A DNA stretch of 26,359 bases. Origin: Phycisphaerales bacterium (GTDB taxonomy: Bacteria; Planctomycetota; Phycisphaerae; Phycisphaerales; UBA1924). This document shows positions 1,394 through 22,330 of the stretch, piece by piece (position 1 is the stretch's first letter; every line of letters starts with the position of its first letter). The notes under the pieces were generated by a model. That model saw nothing but the letters and a program-made list of their open reading frames with translations. It was not told the origin of the DNA and made no database searches. The position numbers and the translations under genes were made by a program. The stretch spans positions 1 through 26,359 of the forward strand of contig JBGTSD010000035.1 of the NCBI GenBank assembly GCA_041940385.1, in the 5' to 3' direction.

Positions 1394-2455
1394 TCACTCG
1401 CACGGCTGGTTGAACCGCCCGAGCAGGATGTTGAGGTCGGCAAAGTCCACGCGCTGGTCGCCGTTGAAGTCGGCGCCGAGACCGGGGGCTTCGGTGCGGA
1501 ATTGATTGAGGGTGATGGAGAGGTCGTCGAAGTCGACGTCAGAGTCGCCATCGGCGTCGCCGTCGCAGAGCTGGAGGACGCCGGAGGCGGTGAGGTTGTC
1601 GAAGTAAACCGGGCTGCCTGCGCTAAGGAACGTGCCGTTCGCCTGAACAGAATCGAACGGCGCCCATGCGCCTCGCCACAGTTCGCCGACGAGGTAGGGC
1701 CCATTGCCATCCATGAGATCAAGGTAGAAGCGGTGGTATGCATCCGGACTCAGCTCGATCCGCAGGCGACACCAGGCGCCGAGGGGCGCCAAGGCCGGAT
1801 CATCCAGTTGCACACCGACAGGCGCCGACTCGAGGTAGCGGAGCAGATGAAATGAAGGGCAGGTCGCACAGGAGGGATGCGGCGCAAAGCCGACGATCAT
1901 CGGCGCGGCGACGCCCGCTGGCAGTCCAAGCATGTCGCAGTGGCCGCTCGGCGAGTTGAGATCGGCGTACGCGTCGCAAGGCCCACCGATCAACGCCCGC
2001 GCGACAAATCCCTGATTGACAGCGTTCGTCGCGGCCAGTTCCCATGTCGAGGCGGCGCTGGTCACGAATACTTCCGCCTCGATCCACGCCGATACTTCGA
2101 GTCCCGCCGCCAGCACGGCGCGTCGCGGTGGCGAATTGTGCGTCAACAGTTCGGCCCGCCAGCCGAACGAGTAAGCGCCGATCGGCGAGACGCTGTCGAG
2201 CTTCGCCTTGACCGACCCGTTGCCGCCGATCGCGTCCGTCGCGAACTCCGCGGCTCGCCCCGGCGCGGTCGTGCCGCGCCAGAGGGTGAGCCCGGTGATC
2301 CGCGGGTCGCTCCACAGCGGCGCGGTCGTCTGGCCGTTGATCGCGCCGGGCGATGCGGACTCGAGGGAGTCCGTCACGGTGACGAGCGTTCCGCCGGCGA
2401 ACGCGGCGTGAGCGCCGAAGGCCAGAATCGCGGCCTTCGGGAGCGATCGGCGCAT
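1394..2455 (-). CDS. Secreted hypothetical protein with C-terminal Cys-bracketed dockerin-like (EF-hand-like Ca-binding) module; paralog A
   Basis: ORF 1394..2476 begins at GTG; an internal ATG at 2455 is preceded by AAGGAGAGG and gives signal peptide MRRSLPKAAILAFGAHAAFA. C-terminus reads CDGDADGDSDVDFDDLNITLNQF...DFNGDQRVDFADLNILLGRFNQPCE, i.e. two DxDxDGxVDxxDL dockerin-type loops. Confidence 0.8.
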   Translation of the reverse strand: MRRSLPKAAILAFGAHAAFAGGTLVTVTDSLESASPGAINGQTTAPLWSDPRITGLTLWRGTTAPGRAAEFATDAIGGNGSVKAKLDSVSPIGAYSFGWRAELLTHNSPPRRAVLAAGLEVSAWIEAEVFVTSAASTWELAATNAVNQGFVARALIGGPCDAYADLNSPSGHCDMLGLPAGVAAPMIVGFAPHPSCATCPSFHLLRYLESAPVGVQLDDPALAPLGAWCRLRIELSPDAYHRFYLDLMDGNGPYLVGELWRGAWAPFDSVQANGTFLSAGSPVYFDNLTASGVLQLCDGDADGDSDVDFDDLSITLNQFRTEAPGLGADFNGDQRVDFADLNILLGRFNQPCE

Positions 2456-2466
2456 CGCGCCTCTCC

Positions 2467-3450
2467 TTATTCGCACGGCTGGTTGAACCGTCCGAGCATG
2501 ACGTTCAGGTCGGCGAAGTCGATGCGCTCATCGAGGTTGAGGTCGGCGCCGGGGCAGAGTCCGGGCGTGGTGTTGAACGCGCCGAGGAGTTGATTGAGGT
2601 CGGCGAAGTTGACGTTGCCGTCGCCGTCGAGGTCGCCGCAGCCGGGCCGGAGGTTGCGAACGGTGAGGTTCTCGAAGTGCACGGTGACGGCGAGTGATTC
2701 GAGGTAGGCCATGAAGCGCCAGGCGTCGGTCCCGGTGAGATTGGTCATGAGCGTGCCGCTGTGGATCAGGAACCGCCCCTGTCCGTCGAGGTAGTTGATG
2801 TAGACGCGCATGTCGCGGTCGAGGTCGTGCTCGATGCTGAGGCGGAACCACTCGTTGACGGGCGTGGGGACGACGTCGCCGACGCTGGCGCCCGCGGGCG
2901 CCGAGCCGACGTAGCGCGCCTCCACGTATCCCGCGTTGGTCGCCACGCGGAAGGTGTCGACGAACTGGCCGTTGCCGATGTCGAAGCCGCCCCAGCCGAC
3001 GCGCGCCAGCGGCGCCTCGCCGACGTCCCACGTCCAGCCCGAGAGCAGCGACTGGACGAAGACCTCGGTCTCGTAGCGCACCAGCCCGTCGCTCGCCGGC
3101 GTCATGACGTCCGGGAACTCGACGCGCGCGCCGATGAAGGGGATGTTGCCCGCCGAGACATTCGTCACCCGACCGCGCAGCGTCTGGGATGCGTTGCCGC
3201 CGATGGGCTGGAGCGTGTTGTTCGAGATCGCGGCCCGATCGGGGATCGAGGGGAGCGCGAGCCAGGTGTTGACCCAGTTGTCATCGATGATCGTTGTCTG
3301 GTTGTGCAGTGGGGCGGGGAGCGGCTCGAGGGTCTCGAAATCGTCGATGAAGCCGACGACGGTTCCGCCGCAGGTGATGACGCCGGTCTGCGCGCAGAGG
3401 GGCGCGGCGCTCGCGGCGAGGATGGCGAACGCAAGGGTGCAACGTTGCAT
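2467..3450 (-). CDS. Secreted hypothetical protein with C-terminal dockerin-like module; paralog B
   Basis: ATG at 3450 is preceded by GGAGAC. Signal peptide MQRCTLAFAILAASAAPLCAQ. C-terminus reads GCGDLDGDGNVNFADLNQLLGAFN...ADLNLDERIDFADLNVMLGRFNQPCE. The central region aligns with paralogs A and C. Confidence 0.8.
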   Translation of the reverse strand: MQRCTLAFAILAASAAPLCAQTGVITCGGTVVGFIDDFETLEPLPAPLHNQTTIIDDNWVNTWLALPSIPDRAAISNNTLQPIGGNASQTLRGRVTNVSAGNIPFIGARVEFPDVMTPASDGLVRYETEVFVQSLLSGWTWDVGEAPLARVGWGGFDIGNGQFVDTFRVATNAGYVEARYVGSAPAGASVGDVVPTPVNEWFRLSIEHDLDRDMRVYINYLDGQGRFLIHSGTLMTNLTGTDAWRFMAYLESLAVTVHFENLTVRNLRPGCGDLDGDGNVNFADLNQLLGAFNTTPGLCPGADLNLDERIDFADLNVMLGRFNQPCE

Positions 3451-3476
3451 AGGAATGTCTCCAGAATGAGGGGAAT

Positions 3477-4547
3477 TCACTCGCACGGCTGATTGAACCG
3501 TCCGAGCAGGATGTTGAGGTCGGTGAAGTCCACGCGGAGATCGCCGTTGAAGTCTCCGCCGAGGCCGGGCCCCTGCGTGGAGTACTGGCTAATCGTGATG
3601 TTCAGATCATTGAAATCGACGTCGCCATCGCCGTCGGCGTCGCCGTCGCAGATCGAGAGCAGGCCGGAGACGAGCACGTCGTCCATGTAGTACGGCGCAC
3701 CGGTCACGAGGAACGAGCCGTTGACGCCCATGGAGTCGACGATCGTCGCGGGCGTATAGCCCTGCAACTCGCGGAGCAGGAATTCGCCCTCGCCGTTGAG
3801 GTAGTCCGCGTAGATGCGGATCACGCCCGCGCCGTCGCGCTCGAAGATGAGCCGCACCCACGAGCCGAACGGCGTGGGCGCGTAGTCGCCGATCTCGAAG
3901 CCCTGCGGCGCCGCGGTTTGGAACGACAGCGGCATGAAGTCGGGAATGCAGATCGAGCAAGGCATGTACCCGAGCGCCTGGAGGATCGGCATGGGGTCGC
4001 CGGGGAGCAGGCCGACGTCGTCGCACTCGAACGGGCTGCTGCCGTAGGAATTCAGGACACAAGGCCCGCCGAGCATCGCCCGGTCCATGATGAAGTTCTG
4101 CGAGATGGATCCGGGCTCGAGCGTCCACAGCGCCGTGATCTCGTTGGTGAAGACCGTTGCCTCGGCGCGGATGACGGTGGTCGCGTCGGCCATGAACCGG
4201 GCGCGCCGGGCGGGCGCATTGTGCGTGTAGAATTCCGAGCGGAAGCCGAAGAAGAAATCGCCCGCGGGCGGCGCCGTGATCGACTCCGCCGACGCTTTCC
4301 ACGACGTGTTCCCGGCGACGGGGTCGGTTGTGAAGTACGCCGTGCGGCCCGCGGCCGTTGTGCCGCGCCAGGTCGTCAGGCCGGTGATGCGGGAATCGCT
4401 CCAGAGGGGAGTGGTCAACTGTCCGTTGACCGCGCCCGCCGATGCGGACTCCATCGACTCCTTAACGGAGACAAAGACGGGGCCGGCTTGGGACAGGTTG
4501 GTCCAGAGCGCGAGGACGAGGGACGCCGCGAGCAACACTCGCTGCAT
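3477..4547 (-). CDS. Secreted hypothetical protein with C-terminal dockerin-like module; paralog C
   Basis: ATG at 4547 is preceded by GGGAGG. Signal peptide MQRVLLAASLVLALWTNLSQA. The N-terminal region ESASAGAVNGQLTTPLWSDSRITGLTTWRGTTAAGR matches paralog A closely. C-terminus reads CDGDADGDGDVDFNDLNITISQY...DFNGDLRVDFTDLNILLGRFNQPCE. Confidence 0.8.
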   Translation of the reverse strand: MQRVLLAASLVLALWTNLSQAGPVFVSVKESMESASAGAVNGQLTTPLWSDSRITGLTTWRGTTAAGRTAYFTTDPVAGNTSWKASAESITAPPAGDFFFGFRSEFYTHNAPARRARFMADATTVIRAEATVFTNEITALWTLEPGSISQNFIMDRAMLGGPCVLNSYGSSPFECDDVGLLPGDPMPILQALGYMPCSICIPDFMPLSFQTAAPQGFEIGDYAPTPFGSWVRLIFERDGAGVIRIYADYLNGEGEFLLRELQGYTPATIVDSMGVNGSFLVTGAPYYMDDVLVSGLLSICDGDADGDGDVDFNDLNITISQYSTQGPGLGGDFNGDLRVDFTDLNILLGRFNQPCE

Positions 4548-4693
4548 GGGAGGCCTCCCGAAATGCCTCACCCTCCAGAGCGGGCAGGCCCCCGACGCAC
4601 AGGGGCCGATCCAATCAAAATGACGCCCGGATGAGCCGCAGTCAAGAATGATCGACCGATATTCGTCTTGACGACCGGCGTCGGCCCCGGACA

Positions 4694-5359
4694 ATGGCCG
4701 CCATGAAGACCGCTTTGTCCGTGATCGCGATGTTCGGCCTTGCCTTGGGCGCTTCGGGCGCAAGCTCGATCGATCCTGCGCATAAGTTCGCGTGGGGCGA
4801 GAACATCGGCTGGACGAACTGGCGCGACGCCGACGGCGGCGACGCCGGCGCGCGCGTGGAACGCACGTTTCTGTCAGGATTCGTCTGGGGTGAGAACGTC
4901 GGGTGGATCAACCTCGGCGCGGGCCCCGCGAATTGCGCTCAGTACGCGAACACCACCGGCGCGGACTTCGGCGTCAACGTTCTGCCGAACGGCGACCTCG
5001 CCGGCCTCGCGTGGGGCGAGAACATCGGCTGGATCAACTTTGACACGGCGTCATCGCTGAGCGCGTTCGGGCAGCAGGCGCGCTTCGACGCGTCCGCCGG
5101 CCGCTTCCGCGGCTACGCGTGGGGCGAGAACGTCGGCTGGATCAACCTCGACGACAGCGCGCACTACGTCGGCTCGAGCATCCCGTGCCCCGCGGACGTG
5201 GACGGCGACGGCTTCATGGGATTCGCCGATCTCAACATCATCCTCTCCGCGTTCAACCAGATCGGTCCGTGTCTCGAGGGCGATCTCAACGGCGACGGCC
5301 AGGTCGGCTTCTCCGACCTGAACCTCGTGGTGTCGTTCTTCAATTCGAATTGCCCGTAA
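4694..5359 (+). CDS. Secreted repeat protein: four WGEN[IV]GW[IT]N repeats plus a C-terminal Cys-bracketed dockerin-like module
   Basis: Signal peptide MKTALSVIAMFGLALGASGA. Repeats AWGENIGWTNW / VWGENVGWINL / AWGENIGWINF / AWGENVGWINL at a spacing of about 32-42 aa. C-terminus reads CPADVDGDGFMGFADLNIILSAFNQ...DLNGDGQVGFSDLNLVVSFFNSNCP. Transcribed divergently from paralog C. Confidence 0.8.
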   Translation: MAAMKTALSVIAMFGLALGASGASSIDPAHKFAWGENIGWTNWRDADGGDAGARVERTFLSGFVWGENVGWINLGAGPANCAQYANTTGADFGVNVLPNGDLAGLAWGENIGWINFDTASSLSAFGQQARFDASAGRFRGYAWGENVGWINLDDSAHYVGSSIPCPADVDGDGFMGFADLNIILSAFNQIGPCLEGDLNGDGQVGFSDLNLVVSFFNSNCP

Positions 5360-8029: not shown

Positions 8030-8103
8030 ACGCCCCGGAGGGGCGTGTCCCGGCGCGCCGGGATAGCCGGGGGTGCAGGCCGCAACGCGGCCGAAACCCC
8101 CGG
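8030..8103 (+). promoter_or_regulatory. Cluster of three adjacent GC-rich hairpins/palindromes in the leader of the FGE-domain gene
   Basis: ACGCCCC-gga-GGGGCGT at 8030-8046; perfect palindrome CCCGGCGCGCCGGG at 8049-8062; nested CCGGGGG...GGCCGC-aac-GCGGCC...CCCCCGG at 8067-8103. About 95 nt upstream of ATG 8199. Confidence 0.3.
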
Positions 8104-8198
8104 ACGCGAGACCTGAGGGAAATCCTCTTGCGTTTCCCGCGCCCCGTGCGAGACTGGTCGGAGCACAGGCCTCGCAGTCCAAGTCCGGGAACTCTGCC

Positions 8199-9236
8199 AT
8201 GCTGAACCTGCGTATCGCCGCGTCCGTCGTGTGTGCGCAGATCGCGTGCGCGCCCGCAATCGCCGCGCCGAAGGTCTCCACCGAGTTCGGCATCGACTTC
8301 GTCACCATCGGCCGTCCCGGCAACCGTGGCGCCTTTCCCGAGGAGCGCTTCTACAACAACCCGCACTATCAGAACCTCGGCAGCGTCAACTACCGGTACC
8401 GTCTGAGCCGGACCGAGATCACCTCGGAGCAATGGGTCGACTTCGCAAACGCGTATGAGCCGTACTGGGCGGCGGCGGGCGGGAGCCGCATCAACCCCGG
8501 TTTCACTGGCGGGTGGCTCAATCCGCAGACCCTCAATCCCAACCTCCCGGCGAATTACTCGATCGCCGCCGGCGCCGAGCTGCTCGCTGTGCAGGTGCAA
8601 TGGCGCGTCGCCGCGATCTTCTGCAACTGGCTGCACAACGGGAAGGTCAACGAGGCGTGGGCGTTCCAGTCGGGCGCGTACGACGTCAGCACCTTTGGCT
8701 CGGACCCCAACGGCGGTTACACCGATCAGGAGTCCCGCTCACCCGGGGCGCGCTTCTGGATCCCCAGTGTCGACGAATGGACGAAGGGCGCGCATTACGA
8801 CCCGAACCGCTACGGCGAGGGCATGGAGGGCTACTGGCTGCGCATGGGAAGCCAGAACGAGCCGCTGATTCCTGGCTTGCCGGAGAACGGGGGACAGACG
8901 AGCTCGGGCGATTTCCTGCCTGGATTCGATGAACAATTCATCCCGGTAGGCTCCTACGCGCACGTTCCGGGCCCCTGGGGCGTGCTCGACACGTCGGGCG
9001 GCGTGCAGGAATGGACCGAGACGATCCGCTCTGGTTTCGATCTGCGGTTCGCCCGCGGCTCAGGCACGAATAACACCCAGTACGCCAACTTCGATGTGAT
9101 CGACTGGTACTCGACGCTTGGCGGTCCCGATCACGCGCGTAACGGCATGCGGCTGGCATCGGCAGTTCCGTCCGCGCCGCTGCCCGCCATGCTTCTCGGA
9201 GCGATCGGCGCCGCGGGTGCGCGCCGGAGGTGTTGA
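8199..9236 (+). CDS. Secreted FGE-sulfatase (SUMF1/formylglycine-generating enzyme) family domain protein with a PEP-CTERM-like C-terminal sorting tail
   Basis: Signal peptide MLNLRIAASVVCAQIACAPAIAA. FGE-like motifs YRLSRTEITSEQWVDFANA, RFWIPSVDEWTKGAHYD, GVQEWTETI, RFARGSG. C-terminal VPSAPLPAMLLGAIGAAGARRRC follows the pattern Pro-rich, hydrophobic helix, Arg cluster. Confidence 0.75.
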   Translation: MLNLRIAASVVCAQIACAPAIAAPKVSTEFGIDFVTIGRPGNRGAFPEERFYNNPHYQNLGSVNYRYRLSRTEITSEQWVDFANAYEPYWAAAGGSRINPGFTGGWLNPQTLNPNLPANYSIAAGAELLAVQVQWRVAAIFCNWLHNGKVNEAWAFQSGAYDVSTFGSDPNGGYTDQESRSPGARFWIPSVDEWTKGAHYDPNRYGEGMEGYWLRMGSQNEPLIPGLPENGGQTSSGDFLPGFDEQFIPVGSYAHVPGPWGVLDTSGGVQEWTETIRSGFDLRFARGSGTNNTQYANFDVIDWYSTLGGPDHARNGMRLASAVPSAPLPAMLLGAIGAAGARRRC

Positions 9237-16089: not shown

Positions 16090-16522
16090 GTTCGGTCTCG
16101 CCTTCCGAGGAACCGTCCGGAATTGACATGCGTATCTGAAAGCGTAACGATCCCCTGCCTTTCTGGTCGCAGCGATCCCCCACATACCCTGATCATGCAC
16201 TGATGGGCGGCTCTGGCCGCCGAGTGATTCCCGGGCGGGTCCACGCGAACCGACATCTCGAAGCCGATCCGCGGCGCCGACGCGACCTGGCGTGTGCGCT
16301 GCGCTCGACATTGATCGGCGTTCCGTCGTTCGCGGCCACGGAGCCGCACCGGCGCGGATTCTTCAGCGGCGCTCCACGATGGCCCATGCGTCGAGCCGCA
16401 CAATCCGCCCCCTGCGAAGCGCGAGCGATGGAGGTTCCCGGTTCCACCGGCGGCGCGATGCGCCCGACCGGACTCGCTCGGATACACCCATGTCAAAACG
16501 CAACTTCACTTTTGGAGGTCTC

Positions 16523-17626
16523 ATGACCCGCAACACCAGCAAGCGTGCATTCACGCTGATCGAGCTGCTCGTGGTCGTTTCGATCATCGGCCTGCTCATC
16601 GGCATCCTGCTGCCGGCGCTCGGCCGGGCGAAGAAGAACGCCCAGCAGATCAAGTGCGCCTCGCAGCTTCGCGAAGTCCACCGCGGCTTCACGACGTTCG
16701 CGCAGAGCAACCGCGACCGTTACCCGACCCCGTCCGCGCTCGACAAGCTCAACTACACCGAGACGGCCGGCGGCGCCCCCGGCATGGTCGATCAGAACAT
16801 CGCCCCCGCCGAGCGTCTCAAGAACCGCACCGGCGCGGTGCTCTCCTTCCTGATCTACCAGGGCTTCTTCCCGCCGGAGCTCGTGGTCACCCCCGCCGAG
16901 GCCGAAGGCCTGATCCACAAGGATCCGGACTTCGAGCAGGGCGAAGTCAGCACCGCGCAGGAGCCCGGCCGCGCGCTGTGGGACCCGGCGTTCGTCGGCA
17001 CCCCCTCGCCCAACGACTACCTGCCCCCGAACGTCTCTCAGGACGAGCAGAACCCGCCGGACATCGCGGTTCCCGGTCAGGGCGGCAACAACTCCTACGC
17101 CATGGTCCCGCTCTGGGGTGAGCGTCACCGCCTGTACTACGGCCTGACCTACTCCTCGAACGAGCCGCTCATCGGCAACCGTGGCCCGCGCTACACGACT
17201 CCGTCGGCCCCGTCCGGCGGCACCACGGTCGTCTACGACCTCCTCGGCGGTCAGGGCGCCTCCGCGCTCCAGGGCGTGAACTCCACGACCCTCCTCATCC
17301 ACGGCGGCAAGCGCACGTGGGAAGGCAACCTCGCCTACAACGACGGCCACGTCTCCTTCGAGGGCAACCCCACCCCGACCAACGTCCGCATGCTCTTCCT
17401 CCAGAGCGGCGGCACCGAGGCCCAGATCTCGGACAACATCTTCGTTGACGAGGACTTCGAGTACGACCAGGACACCGACGCGCCCTATCGCAGCAACGTC
17501 CTGCTGCGCATGTGGCCCGCGAACGAGTCCCGCGGCCTCGCGTTCTCCGACACGACGGTCCAGGAGATCGATCAGACCTACGCCACCTGGGACGCCAAGC
17601 CCGGTGACTGGGGCACGGGCTTCTGA
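16523..17626 (+). CDS. Prepilin-type N-terminal cleavage/methylation domain protein, DUF1559 (Planctomycete H-X9-DG pseudopilin-like) family
   Basis: MTRNTSKRAFTLIELLVVVSIIGLLIGILLPALGRAKKNAQQIKCASQLREV is a class-III signal peptide plus conserved DUF1559 N-terminal region. C-terminal HGGKRTWEGNLAYNDGHVSFEG resembles the H..DG motif. GGAGG sits 4 nt upstream of ATG 16523. Confidence 0.88.
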   Translation: MTRNTSKRAFTLIELLVVVSIIGLLIGILLPALGRAKKNAQQIKCASQLREVHRGFTTFAQSNRDRYPTPSALDKLNYTETAGGAPGMVDQNIAPAERLKNRTGAVLSFLIYQGFFPPELVVTPAEAEGLIHKDPDFEQGEVSTAQEPGRALWDPAFVGTPSPNDYLPPNVSQDEQNPPDIAVPGQGGNNSYAMVPLWGERHRLYYGLTYSSNEPLIGNRGPRYTTPSAPSGGTTVVYDLLGGQGASALQGVNSTTLLIHGGKRTWEGNLAYNDGHVSFEGNPTPTNVRMLFLQSGGTEAQISDNIFVDEDFEYDQDTDAPYRSNVLLRMWPANESRGLAFSDTTVQEIDQTYATWDAKPGDWGTGF

Positions 17627-19671: not shown

Positions 19672-20355
19672 ATGAGAATGAGAAACGCGATGTCGTTGGC
19701 GGGCGGACTTGCCCTCGCCACAGTGGCCAGCGCAGGCATCGACCTGGGCACGGTCTTCTTCACGTACGACGACCCGAACGGCCCGCCGCGCGAGCTGATG
19801 TACACCGCCGGCAACGCCAACCAGCAGGGTCATATCTCCTACTTCAGCGCGACGCCGTTCGACCTGGTGGTCGACGCGAGCGAGCCGGGCTGGGGCGTGG
19901 TGACCTACGCGGCGACGATTTCGATGGACGTCACCGTCGGCCAGGCCACGCAGATGGGCAACGTGTTCTTCGCTCCGGTCTCGGGTGGCTTCAATGTTAC
20001 CGTCGGCGGCGACACCGTCCTCACGGGCGTGCTGAACAACGGCGCCTTCCTGACCTTCGGCACCACGGGCAATCTCAGCGCGAACACCGCGACCGCCTCG
20101 GTCACGATGTCCGTCAGCGGCGACCTGCTCGCGCAGTTCGGCGGCAACCAGATCCAGCCCGACTTCAACGTCTCCTGGTCGCTTTCCGACTACCTGCCCA
20201 GCTCTCCCAGCATCAATCAGTTCGGCTACCTGACCTCGTTCATGGCGAACACCGCGTTCGTCGGCAGTGCGAACGTCGTCCGCGTGCCGACGCCCGGCTC
20301 TGCGGCCCTGCTGGGCATCGCTGGTCTGATCAGCCTGCCCCGTCGCCGGTCCTGA
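19672..20355 (+). CDS. Secreted PEP-CTERM-like sorting-tail protein, paralog 1
   Basis: GGAGGAG sits 9 nt upstream of ATG 19672. Signal peptide MRMRNAMSLAGGLALATVASAG. Conserved core VFFTYDDPNGPPRELMYTAGNAN...DLVVDASEPGWGVVTY...LTFGTTGN...LAQFGGNQ. C-terminus reads VPTPGSAALLGIAGLISLPRRRS. Confidence 0.8.
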   Translation: MRMRNAMSLAGGLALATVASAGIDLGTVFFTYDDPNGPPRELMYTAGNANQQGHISYFSATPFDLVVDASEPGWGVVTYAATISMDVTVGQATQMGNVFFAPVSGGFNVTVGGDTVLTGVLNNGAFLTFGTTGNLSANTATASVTMSVSGDLLAQFGGNQIQPDFNVSWSLSDYLPSSPSINQFGYLTSFMANTAFVGSANVVRVPTPGSAALLGIAGLISLPRRRS

Positions 20356-20668: not shown

Positions 20669-21355
20669 ATGAAGCGTTCTGTTCTTGCGCTGAGTCTGCT
20701 TGCGGGGGCTCTCGGCACGTCGGCCGCGAACGCGGCGATCTACTTCACGTTCGATGATCCGAGCACGCCGCTCGAGTTGACGTACGTCGCCGGGACCGGC
20801 GGCGGCAGCGGCTCGGTGACGTACTCGAGCGCGGCGCGCGTCGATCTCGTCGTCGACGGGACCGAGGACGGCTTCGGCATCACGACCTATTCCGCGCGTT
20901 TGACGATGGACCTGGCCGTGGCGCCGGTGTTCGCGCCGCCGATCCCGATCGCGGTCACCACCGGAACGTTCACGTTCGCGATCGATGACGGGTTCGGTGG
21001 TTTCACCGACATTCTGCATGGCGACGCCGGCGAGATCGGCGGCGCGATGTTCGCCATCGGCTTCTCCGGCTCGATCAGCTTCTCCAACGATGGAGACGAG
21101 GACCCCGTGCTGTTCAATTGGACGGCGATGAACGATCTGCTGGCGTTCCTCGGCGGCAATCAGCTCATCGGCGCGCAGAGTGCGTCATTCTCGCTCGCGG
21201 CGCTGACGCCGCCCGTGCTCGGCGTGAACGTCGAGGGCTACATCCCGTCGTTCACCGCGAACGCCGCGTTCGTCGGGCACGGCGAGATCCCGGCGCCCGG
21301 CCCCACGGCCCTGTTCGGGCTCGCCGGCCTGGTGATGGCCCGCCGACGCCGCTGA
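20669..21355 (+). CDS. Secreted PEP-CTERM-like sorting-tail protein, paralog 2 (most divergent)
   Basis: GAGAGGAG sits 7 nt upstream of the ATG. Signal peptide MKRSVLALSLLAGALGTSAANA. Core IYFTFDDPSTPLELTYVAG...VDLVVDGTEDGFGITTY. C-terminus reads IPAPGPTALFGLAGLVMARRRR. Confidence 0.8.
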   Translation: MKRSVLALSLLAGALGTSAANAAIYFTFDDPSTPLELTYVAGTGGGSGSVTYSSAARVDLVVDGTEDGFGITTYSARLTMDLAVAPVFAPPIPIAVTTGTFTFAIDDGFGGFTDILHGDAGEIGGAMFAIGFSGSISFSNDGDEDPVLFNWTAMNDLLAFLGGNQLIGAQSASFSLAALTPPVLGVNVEGYIPSFTANAAFVGHGEIPAPGPTALFGLAGLVMARRRR

Positions 21356-21441: not shown

Positions 21442-21658
21442 CCGGCCCGATTCAGCATTAGGCCTTGGAGATCGTCGCCCGGGGTGGTACCTTTTGGGGG
21501 TACGCGGGGCCCGCACAGCCCCGTGTTGAACATCCTCAACGGAAACCGTCACCGACCGCGGCGCCATTGGGCGCGGTCGACTGATGGCGAACGTCGTGGG
21601 TGCTCTTGGTTCTGAGCACAGGGTAAGCACAGGGAGAGAATCGAAAGGAGTCCGGATC

Positions 21659-22330
21659 ATGAAATGGGCAGCGTCTCTCATCATGGCGCTCTCGAGTTCG
21701 GCGGCCGCGGTCGCGGGGCTGTCGGGGACGGTGTTCTTCACGTATGACGACCCGGAGGGCACCCCGCGCGAGTTCATGTACACCGCGGGCAATGCGAACA
21801 ACGACGGGACGATCACGTTCAACACCTCGTCGCAGCTCGACCTGGTGGTGGACGCGCAGGAGCCGGGCTTCGGCGTCGTCACCTACGTTGTCACGCTCTC
21901 GCTCGACATGACGGTCGGTCAGGCGACGCTGGTCAGCCCGGGCGTGTGGCAGGCGCCGGTGGACGGGTCGTTCGCGTTCAACGACGGCGTGGACGACATC
22001 CTGACGGGCACCGTCATGGACGGCGCGTTCCTGACCTTCGGCACGACCGGCAACGTCAACGCGAGCAGCTCGACGCTGTCGCTGATGATGACGGCGAGCG
22101 GCCAGCTCCTCGCGCAGTTCGGCGGCGCGCAGCTCTCCGAGGCGTTCGACGCTTCGTGGTCTCTCGCGGACTTCCTGCCGGGCGCCCCGAGCGTCAACAG
22201 CAGCGGCTATCTGCAGTCGTTCGTGGCGAACTCGGCGTTCGTGGGCAGCGCGTTCATCGTGCCCGCCCCCGGCGGCGCCGCGCTCCTCGGCCTGGCGGGC
22301 CTGGTGGCCCTCCCGCGTCGTCGGTCCTGA
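21659..22330 (+). CDS. Secreted PEP-CTERM-like sorting-tail protein, paralog 3
   Basis: AAGGAG sits 8 nt upstream of ATG 21659. Signal peptide MKWAASLIMALSSSAAAVAG. Core VFFTYDDPEGTPREFMYTAGNAN...DLVVDAQEPGFGVVTY...LTFGTTGN...LAQFGGAQ. C-terminus reads VPAPGGAALLGLAGLVALPRRRS. Confidence 0.8.
   Translation: MKWAASLIMALSSSAAAVAGLSGTVFFTYDDPEGTPREFMYTAGNANNDGTITFNTSSQLDLVVDAQEPGFGVVTYVVTLSLDMTVGQATLVSPGVWQAPVDGSFAFNDGVDDILTGTVMDGAFLTFGTTGNVNASSSTLSLMMTASGQLLAQFGGAQLSEAFDASWSLADFLPGAPSVNSSGYLQSFVANSAFVGSAFIVPAPGGAALLGLAGLVALPRRRS

Follow-up and report, generated by a model that had tools for sequence, protein, structure and literature searches.

Why should four neighbouring genes of a planctomycete encode secreted proteins that end in the same short module, one of them on a body wholly different from those of the others, and what might that module do? 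We address this question for a contig of a Phycisphaerales bacterium (JBGTSD010000035.1, assembly GCA_041940385.1), analysed as a single stretch of 26,359 nucleotides (hereafter the window; G+C content about 68%). An earlier note on this DNA had described three tandem paralogs (A, B and C) with signal peptides and a divergently transcribed repeat protein (D), all four secreted and with a Cys-bracketed, dockerin-like module at the C-terminus. All four open reading frames lie exactly where that note placed them:

1394-2455, minus strand: gene A, an open reading frame of 353 amino acids (identical to public protein P0003), with a signal peptide, a concanavalin A (ConA)-like beta-sandwich body (about residues 21-292) and a C-terminal dockerin.
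2467-3450, minus strand: gene B, an open reading frame of 327 amino acids, with a signal peptide, a divergent ConA-like body and a dockerin.
3477-4547, minus strand: gene C, an open reading frame of 356 amino acids matching public protein P0001, with a signal peptide, a ConA-like body and a dockerin.
4694-5359, plus strand: gene D, 221 amino acids, matching public protein P0013, with a signal peptide, four WGENxGWxN beta-hairpin repeats (an eight-stranded barrel) and a dockerin.

The public calls for A, C and D belong to the same NCBI contig. A and B are separated by 11 bp and B and C by 26 bp, while 146 bp lie between the divergent C and D. The N-termini of all four proteins resemble signal peptides when read from the sequence, with a basic residue, a hydrophobic stretch and then an Ala-x-Ala-like site. 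We find that the module shared by these proteins is a true dockerin, a divergent subtype of the GC-type class NF041540. What is new here is that such dockerin sequences are genome-specific, with their differences concentrated at the recognition positions.

The common C-terminal module spans 56 residues from Cys to Cys and contains two calcium-binding loops, each followed by a helix. Its order is loop 1 (D-x-D-x-D-G...D), the helix DLN..L..F, a short linker, loop 2, a second helix and a closing ...FN-x-x-C-x-stop. In the tails of A-D the loop pattern reads D-x-[DN]-x-D...D, again followed by DLN..L..F, and the loops of A, B and C are canonical, with Asp or Asn at positions 1, 3, 5, 9 and 12. 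The duplicated segment (a 12-residue calcium loop plus a helix, twice) is present in all four proteins, with halves that are 50-55% identical. The first Cys stands 1-2 residues ahead of the conserved Gly or Ala in front of loop 1, and only one residue follows the last Cys, as the earlier note had it for all four; B and D have one additional Cys, located in the linker. That note was also right that one module is common to the four proteins, but its estimate of roughly 65 residues was slightly too long. The individual modules are as follows:

1400-1567, minus strand: dockerin of A, Cys297-Cys352; NF041540 at 25.4 bits over profile positions 1-67, Pfam Dockerin_1 at 14.4 bits.
2473-2640, minus strand: dockerin of B, Cys271-Cys326, with the extra linker Cys299; NF041540 at 23.5 bits, with Dockerin_1 and EF-hand_1 matches.
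3483-3650, minus strand: dockerin of C, Cys300-Cys355; NF041540 at 20.6 bits, with model helices at residues 312-320 and 341-351.
5186-5353, plus strand: dockerin of D, Cys165-Cys220, with linker Cys193; NF041540 at 21.7 bits over profile positions 1-67.

Evidence that these modules are dockerins comes from both sequence and structure. A-D all match the same dockerin hidden Markov models across the full module. NF041540 ('GC-type dockerin domain-anchored protein'; curated cutoff 29 bits) finds them at E values of 1e-5 to 4e-4, and its 67 profile positions align exactly from the first to the last Cys in A, C and D and from position 4 in B. Pfam Dockerin_1 (PF00404; gathering threshold 22.9 bits), which had been proposed as a check, matches all four at 14.0-17.1 bits but in none of them reaches its threshold; some D-family and neighbouring proteins elsewhere do reach it. 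The profile of the A/B/C family finds the PDB dockerin 2y3n_B (B. cellulosolvens Cel48, type I) at E 8e-4 over both repeats (residues 300-351 of C), as well as further type I dockerins more weakly, and the three-dimensional fold is that of a dockerin. The tail of D finds the tail of A by BLASTP at E 1e-10; the bodies of the two proteins are unrelated. The dockerin identity first suggested from the sequence is therefore upheld, and chance similarity and a generic EF-hand were both rejected on the dockerin-specific sequence and structure matches.

Membership of the GC-type class can be followed through the relatives of D. Over its full length D is 50-75% identical to a family holding members that pass the NF041540 cutoff: the D orthologs P0082, P0105 and P0035 score 44-58 bits, 60 of 76 D-family members match the profile, and NCBI names P0082 a 'GC-type dockerin domain-anchored protein'. 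Like NF041540 members, the window modules are C-terminal, run from Cys to Cys over the 67 profile positions and occur in a Phycisphaerae lineage. They differ in their helices (DLN..L..F), which are closer to those of classical type I dockerins, and in their ends. A terminal Gly-Cys, which we take to be the GC-type feature on the strength of the family name and of the ...GC or ...GCP ends of its members, closes many D orthologs, whereas the window modules end in ...FNQPCE or ...FNSNCP (PCE in A, B and C, NCP in D). The sub-threshold NF041540 scores can be traced to this ...FN-x-x-C-x end without Gly in the window lineage. The module type is thus already catalogued in NCBIfam, and is unpublished and uncharacterised; literature searches on 'GC-type dockerin' and NF041540 found no paper.

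An indication of function lies in how the modules vary. Across 155 C-terminal modules from 60 genomes, mean identity was 0.66 within a locus and 0.68 between contigs of the same genome, against 0.35 between genomes, and the nearest neighbour of a module came from its own genome in 95 of 132 cases. Between D orthologs, identity is 56-70% in the barrel body but falls to 19-55% in the dockerin, and the dockerin of D resembles those of unrelated proteins in the same genome at 45-78%. Unrelated proteins of one genome have similar modules, and those of different genomes are sharply distinct: DLN..L..FN..C in the window as against LDLADI..FV..F..GCP in CP060234.1, with DDFF.YLDLF..GC, NT.D...FLN.W..GC, NFFDVSAFL..FNAGCP and GFVNGDDYD.FAS.FE.GC in others. 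The most genome-diagnostic columns are segment positions 10, 11, 13, 14 and 21, symmetrically in both repeats, whereas the calcium ligands and both Cys do not vary. In classical dockerins, cohesin recognition and specificity are known to be set by positions 10 and 11 (PMC8063739, PMC3413522). Additionally, the two halves of a module are 70% identical on average (n = 116 modules), compared with 25% after shuffling. Such half symmetry is a hallmark of dual-binding-mode dockerins and, together with the genome-specific positions, is what would be expected of co-evolution with one genome-specific partner.

The same alignment could be read otherwise, with the module serving as a Ca2+-dependent stabiliser or as a glycan- or envelope-binding appendage that has no specific protein partner. 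The calcium-loop residues are its most conserved part between genomes, and in bacteria that make no cellulosomes dockerin-like modules are common even where no cohesin can be detected, which counts in favour of this idea. A stabiliser, however, would need neither helix-surface positions homogenised throughout a genome nor a two-fold symmetry that is kept, and we regard it as very unlikely, the least probable of the alternatives considered here. The rapid divergence between genomes at recognition positions speaks against a mere stabiliser and against a conserved sorting signal; it does not speak against modules that bind one another.

Such homotypic docking would produce oligomers or a lattice of mixed cargo with no separate receptor, and could account for why the dockerins of one genome are all alike, why each module is internally two-fold symmetric and why no receptor gene is conserved near the clusters. 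To our knowledge, however, no solved dockerin functions by self-association, and the genome-specific positions are those that contact the cohesin in classical systems (PMC8063739). We consider self-docking unlikely.

The bracketing Cys residues offer a second line of evidence. In classical dockerins, positions -3 to -1 and the C-terminus form an 'intramolecular clasp', present in all intact dockerin structures of the study that describes it, which stabilises the Ca-bound fold (PMC3821032). Both bracket Cys of the window modules occupy the clasp positions of solved dockerins. Among 120 D-family proteins the terminal Cys is kept in 117, within the last 1-4 residues, and a second Cys lies 48-72 residues upstream of it in 101; all 33 ConA-like family members with a terminal Cys also have the upstream partner, which indicates that ConA-like body and dockerin travel together. 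Where the upstream Cys is missing, several D-family members have one compensating Cys elsewhere (C134 in P0057, P0068 and P0071; an N-terminal Cys in P0072 and P0114; a loop Cys in P0053, P0060 and P0062). These patterns fit a disulfide between the bracket Cys that would be a covalent version of the dockerin clasp. The earlier description of the module as disulfide-stapled thus gains indirect support from the match in position and the conservation of the Cys; the bond itself we infer.

Further Cys may add to this arrangement. Mature B contains four (27, 271, 299 and 326), including one at the N-terminus and one in the linker, and the same four occur in P0134, its closest relative in our searches and a probable ortholog; the shared set suggests a second disulfide that would tie the dockerin to the body. 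Linker Cys193 of D co-occurs with Cys81 of its body, and only in the closest relatives of D. Alternative layouts are seen in other D-family members (P0026, P0038, P0039, P0044 and P0094; P0046, P0048 and P0077). Some subtypes have no pre-loop Cys and carry a Cys pair inside each half (FQ.CFNGPNRP....C), and others have six Cys per module (C..DCNGDG....DFGCFQT.F..GCP), suggestive of different disulfide topologies on the same scaffold.

A near-invariant Cys within 1-4 residues of the end of a strictly C-terminal module would also suit a sorting or processing tag, in which a Phycisphaerae-specific export or attachment machinery uses the terminal Cys as a processing or covalent-attachment site, much as PEP-CTERM or type IX secretion system C-terminal domains are used. 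The NCBI family name contains the word 'anchored', and the same genome places PEP-CTERM-like tails on other tandem paralogs. Signals of this kind are normally conserved across species, however, whereas the module is 35% identical between genomes while the D body is 56-70% identical. In most cases a partner Cys accompanies the terminal Cys, a pattern that suits an internal disulfide better than a free reactive thiol, and the module carries neither a transmembrane segment nor a basic tail. The PEP motif, transmembrane helix and basic tail that mark PEP-CTERM/exosortase substrates are absent from A-D, which end in the dockerin with no hydrophobic tail. We judge a sorting tag to be quite unlikely, somewhat less probable than self-docking.

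We favour, with a probability of roughly 60%, a model in which the module is an address that is read by a receptor particular to each genome. A-D would be exported by the Sec pathway, each as a different cargo domain joined to the same C-terminal address module. Outside the cytoplasm, the module would fold with Ca2+ in its two F-hand loops, and a disulfide between the Cys before loop 1 and the penultimate Cys would clasp its ends. The face formed by the two helices would then dock on a genome-specific receptor, cohesin-like or other, encoded outside the window, and docking would hold diverse cargo together in one extracytoplasmic assembly, which most likely sits at the cell surface. The dockerins of one genome would all co-evolve with that receptor. 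The cargo found here and in relatives comprises ConA-like, beta-barrel, FG-GAP/VCBS, di-haem peroxidase, M12B reprolysin, PhoX-like, Ig-like and beta-helix domains, a variety of non-cellulolytic domains that fits the earlier suggestion of partner-docked rather than cellulosomal proteins. Docking systems typically show such diverse cargo.

Several observations weigh against this docking model. First, all four window modules miss the cutoffs of both PF00404 and NF041540. Second, a scan of the window proteins bore out the earlier statement that no cohesin or scaffoldin is visible there: no cohesin was found within the 26 kb, and no receptor. Third, by gene clustering across 80 loci, the only conserved non-dockerin neighbours of D are beta-helix, extracytoplasmic function (ECF) sigma factor and Ser/Thr-kinase families; these families carry no dockerin, and none of them lies beside D in the window. 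Fourth, gene conversion may be part of the reason why modules within a genome stay alike. Identity at third codon positions is 0.71-0.84 for the modules and 0.55 for the A-C bodies, a comparison that, with small n and high G+C at third positions, is suggestive only; gene conversion would in any case explain how copies stay alike, not that the copies bind a partner. Fifth, position 9 is Gly rather than Asp or Asn in both loops of D, and loop 1 lacks the DxDxDG motif in genome L002, so calcium binding is not uniform. Finally, the number of Cys in mature D-family proteins is even in 75 and odd in 37, a moderate skew that is weakly informative, and many members carry one extra Cys buried in a barrel repeat.

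How would such a system relate to those already described? Type I cellulosomal dockerins (PF00404; for example, C. thermocellum Xyn10B and CelS and B. cellulosolvens Cel48) likewise consist of two segments of about 22 residues, each an F-hand loop plus a helix, and share the two-fold symmetry, the terminal clasp, a specificity concentrated at positions 10 and 11 and sequences that are particular to a species or genome (PMC3821032, PMC8063739). Their clasp is aromatic or electrostatic, whereas here it would be a covalent disulfide. Also unlike type I systems, the host lineage is an aerobic or facultative, non-cellulolytic planctomycete, the cargo does not consist of cellulases, no cohesin was identified and the Pfam scores are sub-threshold. 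Closer in lineage is the cohesin/dockerin 'planctosome' proposed for Nemodlikiaceae, Phycisphaerae (Andrei et al. 2019, PMC6461901). There, too, secreted dockerin proteins of Phycisphaerae are not tied to cellulose, and M12B reprolysin peptidases with dockerins of the kind described here occur in related loci. The planctosome, however, rests on detectable cohesins in large anchoring or adaptor proteins, of which none was seen in the 26-kb window, and the model includes no Cys bracket, genome-specific code or D family (PMC6461901).

A broader proposal, which we offer as speculation and rate as rather doubtful, is that the locus belongs to a Phycisphaerae-wide extracellular assembly, in which disulfide-clasped dockerins would acquire a new recognition surface in each genome. 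At the core of the assembly would stand the widely conserved D protein, together with the tandem beta-helix genes usually found ahead of its gene, and the receptor would be a planctosome-like surface machine with a fast-evolving docking code rather than a recognizable cohesin, possibly in the service of self/non-self discrimination or evasion.

Dockerins are the classic plug of cellulosome assembly, and the class described here would be its disulfide-clasped version, a module borne by many unrelated secreted proteins throughout one whole class of Planctomycetota. Recognition positions and two-fold symmetry together predict one cognate receptor per genome, which makes each module a defined bait. 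If correct, the docking model would reveal how surface proteins are arranged in these poorly understood bacteria, and could supply orthogonal, redox-stabilised docking pairs for protein engineering.

What cargo does the module carry in the window? The bodies of A and C are 41.6% identical (E 5e-64) and B is about 27% identical to either (E 1e-10 to 1e-12), in line with the close pair and more divergent third paralog described at the outset. The family is rare, with only 39 relatives in an exhaustive profile search of 1.84 billion representative proteins, and its body is nearly always fused to this type of dockerin. Many of the relatives are about 900 amino acids long; P0135-P0146 (about 900-950 amino acids), for example, have the ConA-like domain at the head, no Pfam domain and a dockerin end with an extended second loop (PDADGDGVADDAVVNF...). 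The A/B/C bodies adopt the beta jelly roll of the Concanavalin A-like lectin/glucanase superfamily in a model of moderate confidence (predicted local distance difference test score 64). They share this fold with PL7/PL14 alginate lyases, GH16 enzymes and the ERGIC-53/VIP36 lectins at only 6-12% identity, and neither these bodies nor that of D have a Pfam or NCBIfam match beyond the dockerin and EF-hand. Across 30 ConA-like members the conserved columns are W49, N80, E144, R156, W159-G-G, P214, W230, E236, D248, D251-G and D289-N290, and they contain neither the GH16 ExDxxE nor the PL7 Arg/Gln/His/Tyr catalytic pattern. This favours a binding role, and we tentatively suggest that the bodies may be lectin-like and would probably bind glycans.

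The body of D, delimited by predicted strands and by the conserved columns of a 76-sequence alignment, is as follows:

4769-5176, plus strand: beta-barrel body of D, residues 26-161, with the repeats KFAWGENIGWTNW, GFVWGENVGWINL, GLAWGENIGWINF and GYAWGENVGWINL.

An outer-membrane beta-barrel was considered for D and rejected: the predicted strands are short (3-10 residues), with charged and polar residues alternating on both faces, and strands this short and polar indicate a soluble barrel rather than one in the membrane. The D family is large in Phycisphaerae. Its top 120 matches are mostly about 210-245 amino acids long with E < 1e-56, and GTDB species genomes hold at least 554 relatives. 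Within the locus, D is the gene that is conserved; its family is very common in Phycisphaerae, and D is an ordinary member of it.

Upstream of D lies the region that it shares with C:

4548-4693, divergent: the C-D intergenic region, with a sigma-70-like match at 4668-4695 and synteny with loci L007, L008 and L009.

The sigma-70-like promoter match at 4668-4695 (plus strand) overlaps the ATG of D at 4694, and the public call P0013 starts three codons downstream, at 4703; given both, the true start of D may be 4703.

The genes that flank the cluster are housekeeping genes for a PlsC-type acyltransferase, a PEGA protein, an LptB-like ABC ATPase and GAPDH. In close relatives the order is acyltransferase, one or more ConA-dockerin genes and then, divergently, one or two beta-helix genes and a D ortholog (L007); of this order, the part with the ConA-dockerin and beta-helix genes is also seen in L008 and L009. 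In the window the acyltransferase is retained and there are three ConA-like paralogs but no beta-helix genes. Among 80 GTDB loci (L010-L089), one to seven tandem beta-helix genes stand directly upstream of D on the same strand for 48 of 66 evaluable D genes, and none of the 112 beta-helix genes carries a dockerin. At least two GC-type dockerin genes occur in 41 of the 66 loci with a detected module, with up to eight in some. The window cluster is therefore a typical small example of a widespread pattern and in itself nothing exceptional.

Together with D, the beta-helix genes make up an operon that is widely conserved in Phycisphaerae. They are NosD-like (for example, L001 5720-6796, L002 6610-7980, L003 6894-7958, L005 6062-9949 and L007 242-2665). 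They share the N-terminal motif GPLxPPxGPVxxTGKTLxEVEPR, and most end in NF[TSA]Y or similar. An ECF sigma factor (17 loci) or a Ser/Thr-kinase-WD40 gene (26 loci) often lies divergently upstream of the operon. At L002 (CP060234.1, 451-8648), loop 1 has lost DxDxDG in four of five clustered dockerins (AADIAEPFGILDLAD), while their second loop is preserved; dockerins of this kind may bind a single calcium ion. L060 (RHKP01000018.1), labelled Cyanobacteria bacterium CYA, holds a D ortholog and seven more GC-type dockerin genes of one subtype, and is probably a Phycisphaerae contig mis-binned into a cyanobacterial metagenome-assembled genome.

Elsewhere in the window, a second tandem array on the plus strand (19672-20355, 20669-21355 and 21656-22330) encodes three secreted, beta-rich paralogs that are 37-41% identical and without relatives in Pfam or the PDB. 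All three close with a PEP-CTERM-like tail consisting of VPxPG, a hydrophobic stretch and RRR, so that this genome uses two different C-terminal address modules. As a candidate for the cohesin-like receptor, these paralogs (19.6-22.3 kb) were rejected: a PDB profile search gave only noise (ribosomal protein S1, E 0.06), and NCBIfam only weak matches to C-terminal sorting tails. A protein with an FGE-sulfatase (formylglycine-generating-enzyme-like) domain at 8073-9236 (plus strand) also has a PEP-CTERM-like hydrophobic end, followed by RRRC. Finally, the protein encoded at 16292-17626 (plus strand) combines a prepilin-type N-terminal methylation motif (PF07963) with a long unannotated body, as is typical of pseudopilin-like proteins in planctomycetes.

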